This document shows positions 2,318-54,371 of a stretch of DNA of 64,000 nucleotides, one piece after another (position 1 is the first letter of the stretch; each line of letters opens with the position of its first letter). Source of the DNA: Fimbriimonadia bacterium (GTDB lineage Bacteria; Armatimonadota; Fimbriimonadia; Fimbriimonadales; JABRVX01); assembly GCA_041483895.1 (NCBI GenBank), contig JBGPGO010000005.1:96001-160000 (forward strand). Direction: 5' to 3'. A program made the translations under genes and the position numbers. The notes below the pieces were generated by a model. It did not search any database. It saw only the letters and a list, made by a program, of their open reading frames with translations, and was not told where the DNA came from.

Positions 2318-2387
2318 CTCTAACCCTCCCCCGCTCGCGGGGGAGGGTTAGAGCCTGCGCTGAGCTTGTCGAAGGGGTGGGGGTTCT
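2318..2387. repeat. GC-rich palindromic element (CCCTCCCCCGC-nn-GCGGGGGAGGG...GGTGGGGG); may also act as terminator
   Basis: 17-bp perfect arms 2318-2334/2337-2353; same core as the element inside ffh at 25990-26027. Confidence 0.8.
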
Positions 2388-24034: not shown

Positions 24035-24118
24035 ATGTGATTCCGAGCTTGCGAGGAATCTGTGTGGCCAGGGAAACCCTCGGGCGATGGCAGATTCCTC
24101 GCAAGCTCGGAATCACAT
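24035..24118. repeat. Miniature inverted-repeat (REP/MITE-like) element
   Basis: 28-bp perfect arms ATGTGATTCCGAGCTTGCGAGGAATCTG (24035-24062)/(24091-24118); partial CGGAATGACA follows. Confidence 0.8.
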
Positions 24119-24905: not shown

Positions 24906-26387
24906 TTAGCGAAACTTCTTTCCCGTGCGCTTCATGCGCTTCTGCATTCCCATCATGCCCTTCATCATCTGCCGCATCTGCTGCAGCTGCGATATCAGGG
25001 CGTTCACATCTTCCGGCTTCGAGCCGCTCCCCGCCGCGATCCGCCTCTTGCGCGAGCCGTTCAGCAGCTCCGGATGGCGGCGCTCCTGCGGCGTCATGCT
25101 CAGGATCAATGCCTCCACGCGCTGCATTTGTTTCCCTTGCATCGCCTCATGGGCGCCCTTCATTTGGCTCATGCCGGGGATCATATCCATGATCTTTTCG
25201 AGCGAGCCCATCTTCTTGATCATCTGGAACTGGCTCAGCATGTCCTCGAAGTTTAGCGTGTTTGACCGCAATTTTGCTTCGAGCTGCTTCGCCTGGTCCA
25301 AATCGAAGGCCGCTTCGGCGGTCTCGATGAGGGAAAGAACGTCCCCCATGCCGAGAATTCGCCCGGCGGCCCGGTCGGGATAAAACGGCTCCAGGGCGTC
25401 GGTTTTCTCGCCGACGCCGACGAATCGGATAGGTTTACCACAAACGGCGCGAATACTGAGCGCCGCGCCGCCCCTCGCGTCCCCATCCATCTTGGTTAAT
25501 ATGACCCCGTCGATGCCCAGCTGTTGATTGAAAGCCTCGGCGACGTTGACCGATTCCTGCCCGGCGGTGCCGTCAACCACTAGAAGGGTTTCATGGGCTC
25601 CGACCGCCTGCTTGATGTTTTTGACTTGGCGCATCAGGTCGTCGTCAATCTGCAGCCGGCCGGCGGTGTCCACGATCAGGACGTCCGTCGCCTCCTTTTT
25701 GGCTTGGACGGCCACCTTCACCGGGTCCGTCTCGCCCTCGACGGCTACAACCGGCACCCCGATCTGCTCGCCCAACACCTGCAACTGCCTTACCGCCGCC
25801 GGCCGTTGCAGGTCACAGGCCGCCAGGATCGGCTTCTTGCCCTGGCCTTGCAGCCACTTGGCCAGCTTGGCAGCGGTGGTGGTCTTACCCGATCCCTGTA
25901 GGCCGCACAACAGAAACACCGTCGGCCCGCTCGCGGCCCAGTTGATCTCATTCGATGCGACCGGTCTCCCGACCGAGTCGCCAGGTCGACTCCCTCCCCC
26001 GCTTGCGGGGGAGGGCTGGGGTGGGGGTCCGGAAAAGCCCTCCCCTTTTTTCACGCCCTCGCGTGAAGAAGGGGGAGGGTTGGGTGGGGGTTCTTCCGAT
26101 GCGACCGGCCTCCCGACCGGCGCGCCACCAAGCAGCTCCACCATGTGGTCCCGGACAATCTTGACCACCTGCTGGTCGGGCTCCAGCGCTTCCCACACCT
26201 TCTCCCCGACGGCCCTCTCGGTGACGGCGCGGACGAACTCCTTGACCACCTTGTAGTTGACATCGGCCTCGAGGAGGGCGACGCGCACCTCGCGCAACGC
26301 TTCGGTGACGTCCTTCTCGCTGAGCCTTCCGCGCCCGCGCAGACGCCCAAATATCCCACCGAGCTTCTGGCTTAGGGTTTCGAACAT
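24906..26387 (-). CDS. ffh: Signal recognition particle protein Ffh with in-frame repeat-derived insertion
   Basis: ALLEADV, GLQGSGKTT, DTAGR, TKMDGDARGG, GRILGMGD, SMTPQER. Confidence 0.98.
   Translation of the reverse strand: MFETLSQKLGGIFGRLRGRGRLSEKDVTEALREVRVALLEADVNYKVVKEFVRAVTERAVGEKVWEALEPDQQVVKIVRDHMVELLGGAPVGRPVASEEPPPNPPPSSREGVKKGEGFSGPPPQPSPASGGGSRPGDSVGRPVASNEINWAASGPTVFLLCGLQGSGKTTTAAKLAKWLQGQGKKPILAACDLQRPAAVRQLQVLGEQIGVPVVAVEGETDPVKVAVQAKKEATDVLIVDTAGRLQIDDDLMRQVKNIKQAVGAHETLLVVDGTAGQESVNVAEAFNQQLGIDGVILTKMDGDARGGAALSIRAVCGKPIRFVGVGEKTDALEPFYPDRAAGRILGMGDVLSLIETAEAAFDLDQAKQLEAKLRSNTLNFEDMLSQFQMIKKMGSLEKIMDMIPGMSQMKGAHEAMQGKQMQRVEALILSMTPQERRHPELLNGSRKRRIAAGSGSKPEDVNALISQLQQMRQMMKGMMGMQKRMKRTGKKFR
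25953..26119. repeat. Composite palindromic element in frame within ffh
   Basis: 23-bp direct repeats (25953-25975, 26097-26119; 1 mismatch; offset 144 nt) enclosing hairpins at 25990-26027 and 26035-26096. Confidence 0.9.
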
Positions 26388-26506
26388 GGGGATCGGGAGT
26401 ATACCTTGGGCAGAGGCGGTGAATGCGGGGCCGGGCCACCTTGTTGTGCCCCAACGGAGACACTTAGGGATGCTTTGTAGGTCATTTTGGGCTACACTCG
26501 TTCGAG

Positions 26507-27562
26507 ATGGATCTAGAAAGTGTTCATATACAGAGATTCCGGTGCTTCGACGACTTCAAGATTACAGGTTTCCGCCAGATTACGTTAGTTGCCGGAGCTA
26601 ACAACGTCGGCAAGACCGCGCTCTTAGAAGCCATATTCCTGTTGTACGGCCCAGCTAGCCCGGACCTACCCGGCATGCTCAACTTGAATCGCCAACTTTC
26701 AGGCCACGTCATTGTTCCATTGGAGTTTTGGGGGTGGCTTTTTCACGAGCGAAACATAAAGGAAACCGCCACGATCCAGTCTAGCGGTGACGCCTCAACT
26801 GAGCGTAGCCTGACGCTCACGTTGAAACACGGTGACACATTGTCTATGAGCGACAAGGATCTTATCGCACAGCCGCCCGGTCCAATACTGAATCCGTACA
26901 TTCTCGAAATGGCATACCAGATTGGATCCGGGGAACGGTTTATTTCCCGTGCGAGACCCGGCGACCAGGGCATCCAGTACGATGTCGCTAGTATTCCGTC
27001 AATACCAACGATACTTACAATGTCCAGCACACTTAGATACCCTTTGGATGTGCCGCAACTCTTTACGGACGCTGTCCGAGACGGTCAGAAAGATAAGCTG
27101 ATTGCCGCGATGAGGACCATCGCACCAGATTGCAATGATCTTCTATTGCTCCAGTGGTGTGGAGCGTCTGTTCTGCACGTCGGTCGTTCTTCTGGCGTGC
27201 CTATGCCGATCCAGCTAATGGGGGATGGCGTTGCAAGATTGTTCTCAATCCTTCTTGTGGTATATCGGGCAAAAGATGGGATCGTGTTGATCGACGAAAT
27301 CGAGGCAGGCTTTCATCACTCAAATTTTTGCATGGTCTGGGAATCAGTTATCGACACTGCTACGAAAAACAACGTTCAGGTAGTGGCAACCACTCACAGT
27401 TTAGAATTCATCGAATCTGGATACAGCGTATTTCGAAAAGGCGAACGATCGGATTTGCTCAGATTGATAAGGTTGCAATCTGTTGATGGCAAGACCAAAG
27501 CATTCGATTACGATCTGGATTTGCTTGAAGCGGCCCGTGAAATCGAGGCCGAGGTCCGTTAG
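26507..27562 (+). CDS. ABC/AAA ATPase (AAA_15/AAA_21-like)
   Basis: IQRFRCF, GANNVGKT Walker A, MGDG signature, LIDEIEAGFH, ATTHS. Confidence 0.9.
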   Translation: MDLESVHIQRFRCFDDFKITGFRQITLVAGANNVGKTALLEAIFLLYGPASPDLPGMLNLNRQLSGHVIVPLEFWGWLFHERNIKETATIQSSGDASTERSLTLTLKHGDTLSMSDKDLIAQPPGPILNPYILEMAYQIGSGERFISRARPGDQGIQYDVASIPSIPTILTMSSTLRYPLDVPQLFTDAVRDGQKDKLIAAMRTIAPDCNDLLLLQWCGASVLHVGRSSGVPMPIQLMGDGVARLFSILLVVYRAKDGIVLIDEIEAGFHHSNFCMVWESVIDTATKNNVQVVATTHSLEFIESGYSVFRKGERSDLLRLIRLQSVDGKTKAFDYDLDLLEAAREIEAEVR

Positions 27563-28189
27563 TTGAAGTCCCAAGTGCCAGAGTCAATTAATCGGCCTTG
27601 CGTGATCGCAGTAGAAGGAGACGATTGCAAACGAGTTGTTCGTGCAATGCTACGTCATCTGCAACGAGATGCGGTTGTGCGGGATTTGAAGTCTCAGTCG
27701 GAGATTCGATCAGGCTTGCTGGCACTTGCCACTGATCCCGGTTTTGTCCACAATGCCAGGTCTTTGGCAGTCATAATTGATGCAGAAGCGAATATAGTTG
27801 CGGCAATTGACAAAGCAAAGGGAGCCATCGCCCAACTTCAGGATTGGCCTCATCCGACGAAGCACGGGGTCATCAGGTCCCATCCCAGCAACCTGCGGCG
27901 AGCAGGATTTTTTGTTCTCCCAGATGGCAAATCCAACGGAAATCTCGAGGACTTAGTCTGGCGATCTGTTGCGGATAATCCGATGGCTCCGTGCATCCAA
28001 GACTTTCAAGAATGTATTCACGAGAATGGGCTGCCACTTCCATCCAATTTGAGCAAGTTTCGTGTGCAATCATTCATTGCTGGACACCCAAGCGACTTTC
28101 GTCTAATCGGTGAAGCTGCCGACGGTGGCGTTTGGCCATTCGACCACGACGCGTTCGACGGCCTAAGAAAATTTCTTAGCGGCTTATGA
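27563..28189 (+). CDS. DUF3226-like TOPRIM-fold protein
   Basis: IAVEGDD, IIDAE, FVLPDGKSNGNLEDL, WPFDH; abuts the ATPase stop. Confidence 0.7.
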   Translation: MKSQVPESINRPCVIAVEGDDCKRVVRAMLRHLQRDAVVRDLKSQSEIRSGLLALATDPGFVHNARSLAVIIDAEANIVAAIDKAKGAIAQLQDWPHPTKHGVIRSHPSNLRRAGFFVLPDGKSNGNLEDLVWRSVADNPMAPCIQDFQECIHENGLPLPSNLSKFRVQSFIAGHPSDFRLIGEAADGGVWPFDHDAFDGLRKFLSGL

Positions 28190-52870: not shown

Positions 52871-54371
52871 CGATCTGGCTGCGATTGTCGGCGACGAGGG
52901 TGTGATCTCTCGCGCTGACCAGCTTGTAATGTACGATTGCGACGCGTATACAATCGAGAAGGCGCTTCCCACCGTCGTCGTGCTGCCCACCTCTACCGAC
53001 CACGTATCCGCCATCTGTCGTCTGGCACATCGTGCTGGGCTGCCGGTGATTCCACGGGGCGCCGGGACCGGGCTTTCCGGCGGCGCGTTGGCGGTCGAAG
53101 GCGGGATTATCATCTCTTTGACCCGCATGAACCGCATTTTGGAGATTGATATCCCGAACCGTTTCGTCCGCGCCCAGACGGGGGTGGTCAACGCCAGCAT
53201 TACGAAGGCGGTGAGATCCACAAGCCCTCCCCTTTTTTCCAGCGACTCCGGCAACAACCCGACGATGTCCAAACTCTCTGAGCCGGAAAAAGGGGGAGGG
53301 TTGGGTGGGGGTTCTTCGGATTTCTTCTTCGCCCCGGACCCCTCTTCGCAAGGCGCATGTACCATCGGCGGCAACATTGCCGAAAACTCCGGAGGGCCGC
53401 ACACGCTGCGCTACGGTGTGACAGCCAACCACGTCACGGGACTGACATTGGTTCTCCCCGATGGTACGGTGGAGGAACTGGGCGGGCCGGAGAGGGAGCC
53501 GTTCGGCTACGACCTGGTCGGCATCGTGGTCGGCAGCGAGGGCACGTTTGGGATCGTGACCGAGGCGACCTGCCGAATCTTGCGAAAGCCGGAGGCGGTG
53601 GTTACACTGCTGGCCTCTTTCCCTTCCGTGGAATCGGCGACGCAGGCCGTGACCGCTGTGATTGCCGAGGGATTGCAACCCGCCGCGCTAGAGATGATGG
53701 ACCGTCCCGTGCTGGAGGCCGTCGAGATGGCATTTGGGTACGGTCTGGCGCGCGGAGCGGAGGCGGCGCTCATCGTCGAGTTCGAAGGCTGCGCGCCATT
53801 TGTCCAAGAGGCCTCTCAGCAGGGCGATGCCATCTGTCGAGCGGAGGGGGCCTTCGCGGTCCTGTCCGCGACGGAGGACCTGGAACGGGCGAAGTTGTGG
53901 GCGGCGCGGAAGAAGGCGATCGGGGCGTTGGGTCACATCACGCCGAGCGTGGTGACCCACGACGGCGTAATCCCCCGGTCCAAACTGCCTTCGGTCCTGG
54001 CGCAGTGCGCCGATATCGCGCGTCGGCATGGGCTGCGAAATGCCAACGTTTTTCATGCGGGCGATGGGAATCTGCATCCGGTGCTGATGTTCGACGACAC
54101 CGATCCCGAACAGGTGCGAGCAGTGGTGGCGGCGGGGGAGGAGATTCTGAATACCTGCCTCGCCGCGGGGGGAAGCCTGACGGGCGAACACGGCATCGGT
54201 ATCGAGAAAGCAACGATGTTGGACCGGATGTTCGATGCGGACACGATTGACTGCATGCGCCGCCTGAAGACTGTATTCAATCCGGACGGGCGCTGCAATC
54301 CGGGCAAGATATTCCCCGATTCAAAGCATTGCTATGAAATGAAGCCTCGGCGGGGTCCGATCGGGGTTTGA
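52842..54371 (+). CDS. glcD: FAD-linked oxidase, GlcD-like, with in-frame repeat insertion
   Basis: PRGAGTGLSGG, APDPSS, GSEGTFGIVT, HAGDGNLHP, GEHGIG, NPGK. Confidence 0.85.
   Translation: MPMDTQRLSSDLAAIVGDEGVISRADQLVMYDCDAYTIEKALPTVVVLPTSTDHVSAICRLAHRAGLPVIPRGAGTGLSGGALAVEGGIIISLTRMNRILEIDIPNRFVRAQTGVVNASITKAVRSTSPPLFSSDSGNNPTMSKLSEPEKGGGLGGGSSDFFFAPDPSSQGACTIGGNIAENSGGPHTLRYGVTANHVTGLTLVLPDGTVEELGGPEREPFGYDLVGIVVGSEGTFGIVTEATCRILRKPEAVVTLLASFPSVESATQAVTAVIAEGLQPAALEMMDRPVLEAVEMAFGYGLARGAEAALIVEFEGCAPFVQEASQQGDAICRAEGAFAVLSATEDLERAKLWAARKKAIGALGHITPSVVTHDGVIPRSKLPSVLAQCADIARRHGLRNANVFHAGDGNLHPVLMFDDTDPEQVRAVVAAGEEILNTCLAAGGSLTGEHGIGIEKATMLDRMFDADTIDCMRRLKTVFNPDGRCNPGKIFPDSKHCYEMKPRRGPIGV
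53222..53317. repeat. Palindromic element in frame within glcD
   Basis: 96 nt; first 18 nt and last 28 nt identical to 26035-26052 and 26069-26096 in ffh. Confidence 0.9.

Follow-up and report, generated by a model that had tools for sequence, protein, structure and literature searches.

The window analysed here is a stretch of 64,000 nucleotides (C5:96001-160000) from a 3.95-Mb genome (G000) that is 95% complete, and at 24906..26387 on the (-) strand, read from 26387 to 24906, it carries ffh, the gene for the signal recognition particle protein. The 493-residue product scores 558.6 bits against TIGR00959 (cut-off 473.2), and its named close homologues belong to Fimbriimonadales, Armatimonadota. 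This is the single ffh in the assembly, with one full match, a separate ftsY and an SRP RNA present. Just upstream and divergent from it lies a gene pair at 26507-28189 (+), an AAA ATPase (AAA_15/AAA_21) and a DUF3226 gene, which looks like an accessory defence or toxin–antitoxin-type module. Within ffh, an insertion of 165 nt (25950..26114, (-) strand) adds 55 codons between the N and G domains, so that residues 92-146 separate Val91 from Glu147. The linker was short in 23 of 23 aligned relatives (30 loci were taken, of which 6 were dropped when the ORF pattern failed), which marks residues 92-146 as extra. For example, the linker of the closest relative reads LLGGEPV and then EINW, and alignment of its DNA to the window leaves a gap of exactly 165 nt with no target-site duplication. 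Among the best 120 of 5610 Ffh matches, none other had the insert. An earlier note made from the letters alone had read the protein string and its DNA correctly and had expected a short linker in relatives; the insert it sized at 144 nt (48 codons) is 165 nt and 55 residues long by the empty site of those relatives.

The insert is built of four repeats of two families. In gene order it holds a truncated copy of family A (26098-26119), the B2 element (about 26033-26096), the B1 element (25992-26027) and a full copy of family A (25954-25981). The full copy, A2 (25954..25981, (+)), is a REP-like hairpin with a GATG foot, a stem of 6 bp and 5 bp, a one-base bulge and a 4-nt loop (fold z -4.4), and is identical to the family consensus. 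A1 (26098..26119, (+)) is truncated at its 3' end and folds weakly (z -1.1). Its last 5 nt (26115-26119) belong to the host codons for Pro90 and Val91 and agree with the A consensus, a microhomology of 5 nt at which this end appears to have been joined. Both copies carry the less common C variant, present in 50 of 161 family A copies. B1 (25992..26027, (+)) is a BoxC/triplex-motif repeat with a C-run, a 6-nt loop, a G-run, a 3-nt loop and a G-rich third strand (z -2.4 against shuffles), and B2 (26033..26096, (+)) is an extended repeat of the BoxC type that has a G-rich tail and carries an additional stem-loop within (z -4.3). The two G-tailed hairpins of the earlier note can thus be recognized, as can the likenesses it drew from them. 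B1 matches 2324-2347 at 23 of 24 positions, within an intergenic B1 element (2324..2386, (+)) that has another small repeat lodged in its third-strand loop. For B2, the arm and tail agree with 53286-53321 at 34 of 36 positions, within a B2 element (53213..53325, (+)) that sits in frame in a glcD-like gene (itself below the glcD cut-off) and amounts to a net +96 nt against the relative.

Support for the insert in the assembly was sought by comparing the contigs of four sediment metagenome runs with ffh. In one run (X1), three overlapping contigs without a mismatch tile the insert and both its junctions (25657-25979, 25953-26017 and 26000-26500), and two others (X2 and X3) hold the same insert pieces in part. 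The N-side junction was bridged in three of the four runs; the G-side junction was crossed in two of four by 30 letters only, one short of the 31-letter criterion. No contig that skips the insert was found in the four runs, and those covering it have no listed sequence differences. The Ffh insert is therefore real and no artefact of assembly. Short-read contigs do break at an A copy, and the whole insert is spanned by no single contig, as a misassembly around repeats would lead one to expect. However, the mismatch-free tiling in X1 and the same pieces in X2 and X3 speak against such an origin, and misassembly would not have kept the frame in 26 of 26 inserts (below); we give it a negligible probability.

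The two 23-mers that caught the eye of the earlier note, at 25953-25975 and 26097-26119, do lie 144 nt apart and agree at 22 of 23 positions. They can be found throughout the genome, in 15 exact copies and 153 within 3 mismatches, and form the core of the 28-nt, GATG-footed hairpin that defines family A. A 23-bp target-site duplication was rejected as their origin, since the empty site lacks the 23-mer and is shorter by 165 nt. With 153 dispersed copies and an empty site free of them, the 23-mer is a REP in its own right. Family A occurs 161 times in the genome (150 times with its 3' end complete) and never in the reversed genome; its GATG foot is present in 155, 159, 161 and 159 of the 161 copies at the four positions, a figure partly set by the search pattern. 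REPs are imperfect hairpins of 20-50 nt, in high copy and mostly intergenic, with a 5' GTAG or GTGG foot. Family A is a 28-nt hairpin in high copy with only 20 of its 89 clusters strictly intragenic, but its foot is GATG and not the canonical GTAG/GTGG. Atypical feet have been described for other TnpA-Y1 classes. Intragenic A copies in sense orientation favour one frame (13:1:1 clusters), whereas antisense frames are even (4:4:4), and stop codons explain only one of the two rare sense frames. Outside this genome, one match with 2 mismatches was found in 5 relatives and none in JGI metagenomes, while six single matches among GTDB genomes lack the outer stem and look like chance; the JGI and GTDB scans may omit the window's own and very close genomes. 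By these scans, family A is a REP specific to this genome. Its copies are very densely packed across an apparent anaerobic respiration and iron-uptake region at C7:98000-133000.

A candidate RAYT can be named for family A. A Pfam search found six Y1 transposases, all flanked by three other repeat families, and a profile built from those six found two more genes, both over the NCBIfam cut-off for REP-associated tyrosine transposase. One of the two is an intact RAYT at C12:73415-73954 (85.5 bits against an NF047646 cut-off of 80), whose translation has the HUH and Tyr motifs and which lies between an array of 8 A copies and, across the gene in inverted orientation, 3 further copies or fragments. 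The second is flanked by family F, and in all the other seven Y1/RAYT genes are flanked by repeat families other than A. An RAYT between inverted copies of its cognate repeat is the layout of a REPtron, and on this sequence evidence the C12 gene with its inverted A arrays is one for family A, and the candidate transposase. No close relative of this RAYT that carries A was found, the best full-length identity being 40%. Of 68 loci with RAYT relatives, 58 were examined and 10 short partial matches left out; inverted flanking repeats were present at 31 of the 58, none of them A-like. Fragments of RAYT genes also occur at C17:34178-34510 and C19:58541-58729, one fused to an unrelated small ORF and one beside D and K repeats.

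Family B is of a different kind. The genome holds 72 B1 cores, 42 B2 heads and 122 copies of the B tail, with B1-then-B2 doublets at 4 loci including ffh, and B is present in 25 of 60 intragenic clusters. In sequence and fold, B1 and B2 have the single-strand layout of a pyrimidine run, a complementary purine run and a purine third strand, as judged by a folding method that does not model triplexes. B1 fits the TMECO consensus bar one position; the strict consensus has 0 matches in the genome, and a relaxed form (A or G at one third-strand position, loop up to 8 nt) has 41, the Ffh B1 among them. In 48 of 66 clusters the G-tailed strand of B is the one with local C skew (p 0.0003), a weak and noisy skew signal hinting at a replication-strand bias of B. 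For the enzyme behind B, a link to DUF559 nucleases was presumed and then tested on loci of the phylum. DUF559 is found in 89 of 151 sampled genomes of the phylum, and at 20 high-scoring loci, one per genome, a B-like tail was present in 8 by a strict pattern and in 10 by a relaxed hairpin-plus-tail pattern, which hit 1 of 1000 random stretches, 0 of 114 ffh-region stretches and 0 of 68 RAYT loci. Several DUF559 loci are bracketed by B-like repeats in inverted orientation. In this 95%-complete assembly, neither a Pfam search nor a profile of 20 phylum proteins, with stops read through, found DUF559, and the mobilizer of B is thus inferred from other genomes: B was probably spread by another enzyme than A, a DUF559 nuclease now lost or unassembled. 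The enzyme hunt that the earlier note had proposed has accordingly given a candidate RAYT for A, and for B none in the genome itself. Titles and abstract openings of 22 DUF559 papers make no link to these repeats. In a same-order genome (G035:C20:129397-132415), a DNA methyltransferase-like ORF contains a B-type repeat in frame.

The insert in Ffh is one of many. Thirteen repeat families form 671 clusters, of which 60 lie well inside 55 genes by our own gene calls; with 87% of the genome coding, intragenic repeat copies are depleted about tenfold. Comparison with 2.41 Mb of a same-family relative (about three quarters of its genome), through 1330 orthologue alignments, gave 27 repeat-bearing insertions, all multiples of 3. 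One, a stop-containing insert at C1:122104, was dropped when an over-extended gene call in the relative was recognized and the insert proved intergenic, leaving 26. All 26 are in frame and stop-free, in 25 genes, with lengths of 24-321 nt, and when 26 frameshifts were introduced artificially, the same method picked up 25. For five more clusters that fall inside orthologue spans, the alignments yielded no insertion event. No direct repeat longer than 4 nt at the insertion offset was found in the 26, whose DNA junctions are well resolved for few, Ffh included. The inserts occur in both orientations, their peptides come from all six frames, and similar peptides recur in unrelated proteins. The kept frame suggests that they are probably translated as disordered loops. 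When 19 of the 55 host genes were scanned against family profiles, ffh, trmD, alaS, carB, purA, rsmG, queG and hemW were over cut-off and confirmed against the relative, and era, purL, mnmG, hisF, aroE and DNA polymerase III alpha were over cut-off without that confirmation. A DNA polymerase III alpha-type ORF of 1502 aa (C8:64748-69256) holds four repeat clusters of six families, the first two of which may lie upstream of the true start. In the reverse comparison, the relative had only 2 repeat-bearing insertions, and the pattern in these sequences is that of a burst in one lineage. Dozens of intragenic copies thus bear out the earlier idea of dispersed palindromic repeats set in frame in conserved proteins, like those of Rickettsia, and with the empty site they contradict the alternative of an old conserved linker unrelated to dispersed repeats.

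Ffh is essential in model bacteria, and what the loop does to the protein can be approached through structure prediction. In the AlphaFold model, pLDDT is below 50 for most of residues 92-143, which have no secondary structure, whereas the N and G domains are confident and superpose on solved NG domains with target-normalized TM scores of 0.82-0.92. The model leans on insert-free relatives and is biased towards the normal NG fold; it is compatible with a tolerated floppy loop of 55 residues. At the same spot, the linker is some 10 aa longer in two Ffh proteins of planctomycete type. A literature search on the N-G interface motif of Ffh found nothing.

The reading we favour, and consider likely, is that the Ffh insert grew by stepwise pile-up of small, non-autonomous repeats in a tolerant surface linker and is translated as a disordered loop. 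The composition and order of the repeats, the empty site, the inverted A copies around the RAYT, the BoxC-type nature of B and the kept frame are observed. For the steps between, the RAYT, a Y1 HUH enzyme that would cut and rejoin single-stranded DNA near its REP, may have spread A without target duplication and may also have left partial tandem copies such as A1; both features would be explained by such cutting and rejoining. That this RAYT acts on the GATG-footed A is inferred by analogy with TnpA-REP of E. coli, for which cleavage, strand transfer and BIME amplification have been shown in the experiments described in PMC3333891. B would have been spread by a different enzyme, probably the missing DUF559 nuclease. 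Selection would then have purged inserts that shift the frame, add a stop or hit the protein core, and those that survive would be tolerated, near-neutral loops. The earlier note had proposed one cassette of one element family bounded by direct repeats, that is, a 144-nt mobile miniature element with a 23-bp target-site duplication. Such a geometry would agree with the exact spacing of 48 codons between the two near-identical 23-mers, and A1 is perhaps a local partial copy of A2, given their shared C variant, but the empty site has no 23-mer, the 23-mer is itself a repeat of 150 copies, and no second locus has the order A-B2-B1-A on one strand. The insert in ffh is a mosaic in which two unrelated families meet, each with its own candidate enzyme, and a single element is very improbable.

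Two further explanations concern what becomes of the insert once made. It might be removed or skipped at the level of RNA or ribosome, as an intron-like segment or by translational bypass, to give an Ffh of normal length. In favour of this are the strong folding of the mRNA here (z -2.7) and the identical peptides on either side, which would fit a take-off and landing scheme. Removal, however, would not require 26 of 26 inserts to keep the frame and avoid stops, nor does it sit well with inserts in both orientations and all frames or with the tenfold depletion of intragenic copies, and we hold it to be highly unlikely. Hardly better are the prospects of a loop domesticated to modulate SRP function, or of hairpins that tune ffh translation or mRNA stability. 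The insert is fixed in the contigs that cover it and sits at the N-G hinge, as such a role would have it, but it is absent from all relatives examined, similar peptides occur in unrelated proteins, and the identity of A2 to its consensus speaks for recent age.

The pile-up account can be refined by asking where new copies land. Of 22 intragenic loci, 11 have A no more than 70 nt from B, against 0.11 expected from random coding placement, a null that ignores the rarity of tolerant sites, which alone would cluster inserts. At other loci the figure is 13 of 71 against 2.1 expected, with a maximum of 8 in 1000 trials. Where a cluster has both, A and B are on opposite strands in 15 cases, share a strand in 2 and are mixed in 4 (p 0.002 on 15:2), and Ffh is one of the two same-strand clusters. 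The A–B spacers are mutually unrelated, which argues that the pairs arose separately and that no one composite was copied. Family D beside B is on the opposite strand in 7 cases to 0, while family F follows B on the same strand on its tail side. Distant A–B pairs are even (17:16), and A shows no bias with respect to local skew (17:15); a replication-strand cause of the A–B polarity is unsupported by these counts. The excess of A beside B, far above chance and mostly on the opposite strand, with Ffh an exception, is the new observation.

One reading of this, possible but in our judgement short of an even chance, is targeted stacking, in which the RAYT would insert A preferentially beside B, in a strand left single by triplex folding or by a nuclease nick. 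The excess at both classes of loci and the opposite-strand rule, shared with family D and lost in distant pairs, are what it predicts. Against it stand the same-strand order in Ffh itself, the neglect of scarce tolerant sites in the coding-region null, the same-strand position of family F, and the absence of a stable triplex in duplex DNA and in vivo in the experiments reported for such repeats (Holder et al., PMC4666352). Targeted stacking refines the pile-up account, and both could hold together. More speculative still, and rather doubtful, is a coupling of two selfish repeat systems, in which B, spread by DUF559, would expose a strand, the RAYT of the GATG-footed REP would insert there, and B would so seed a growing, frame-filtered loop. 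If true, about 55 proteins, Ffh, TrmD and AlaRS among them, would owe their disordered segments of 8-107 residues to this route.

Intragenic REPs and Rickettsia palindromic elements (RPEs) are both published, and the general phenomenon being known, the surprise is limited. In the passages that describe them, intragenic REPs and REPtrons (Di Nocera 2013 PMC3733652; Quentin 2018 PMC6006769; Ton-Hoang 2012 PMC3333891) resemble family A in being short 5'-footed hairpins in high copy, mostly intergenic, with inverted copies flanking their own RAYT and in-frame singles or clusters in housekeeping genes. For instance, intragenic clusters of 43-82 aa have been reported there for GTAG/CGTC repeats with RAYT/TnpA-REP (PMC3733652, PMC6006769, PMC3333891). 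Unlike the REPtrons of those passages, family A has a GATG foot, its Ffh cassette mixes a REP with a BoxC-type repeat, and the host is of Armatimonadota. The word GATG is absent from the main text of PMC3733652 and PMC8266576, though the atypical REP table of Quentin 2018 may hold such cases; likewise, Ffh is not among the REP hosts named in a main-text section of PMC3733652, whose supplementary host list may include it. RPEs, in the part of PMC10969869 that treats them, are likewise palindromic, in frame in unrelated conserved genes and of similar length, but they are single elements of about 150 bp, each encoding a conserved peptide, whereas the stacked units here measure 25-65 nt and are read in any of the six frames. 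Both thus enter conserved genes in frame (26 of 26 here), and a conserved-peptide unit of about 150 bp is not found. BoxC/PIT/TMECO, as set out in sections of Holder 2015 (PMC4666352), shares with B1 the C-run, G-run and G-rich third strand and its consensus bar one position; B2 differs from the repeat described there in its long extra stem-loop. Those sections have TMECO always intergenic in E. coli K-12 and without a link to mobile elements, in contrast to the intragenic share of B. BIME/REPIN mosaics are like the Ffh insert in their REP clusters, variable linkers and local tandem amplification, but the basic BIME is an inverted REP pair, whereas in Ffh the two A copies point the same way, with repeats of another family between them. 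The terminal inverted repeats and target duplication of a MITE are missing: REP copies in direct orientation form the ends, and judged by the empty site nothing was duplicated. No description of REP-plus-BoxC mosaics inside genes was found among the papers listed in the searches; a 1999 enterobacterial survey covers BoxC and reportedly describes composite BoxC elements.

These repeats can be useful in several ways. The 55 host genes amount to a natural linker-scanning experiment, in which sites that tolerate large loops in core proteins, such as the N-G hinge of Ffh, can be read off. The strand polarity of A beside B offers a way to test how REPs choose where to insert and what role BoxC/triplex repeats play. 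Eight RAYT-type genes and one GIY-YIG gene each lie beside their own repeat family, so enzyme–repeat specificity is directly testable, including that of a GATG-footed REP. The GIY-YIG nuclease gene (95 aa, C28:88-690) has inverted pairs of family G repeats on both sides, a layout that in sequence is REPtron-like with a different enzyme. In the window, a perfect 28-bp inverted repeat that is family G-like (24035-24118) overlaps the 5' end of rimM. The Pfam match of this ORF begins at residue 39, and its first 30 or so residues are therefore probably untranslated. A small family G-related repeat is also nested in B elements, at two recurring positions between hairpin and tail, in 5 of 23 matches: at 2324-2386 of the window and at C5:47110, C18:41524, C1:433368 and C1:309143.
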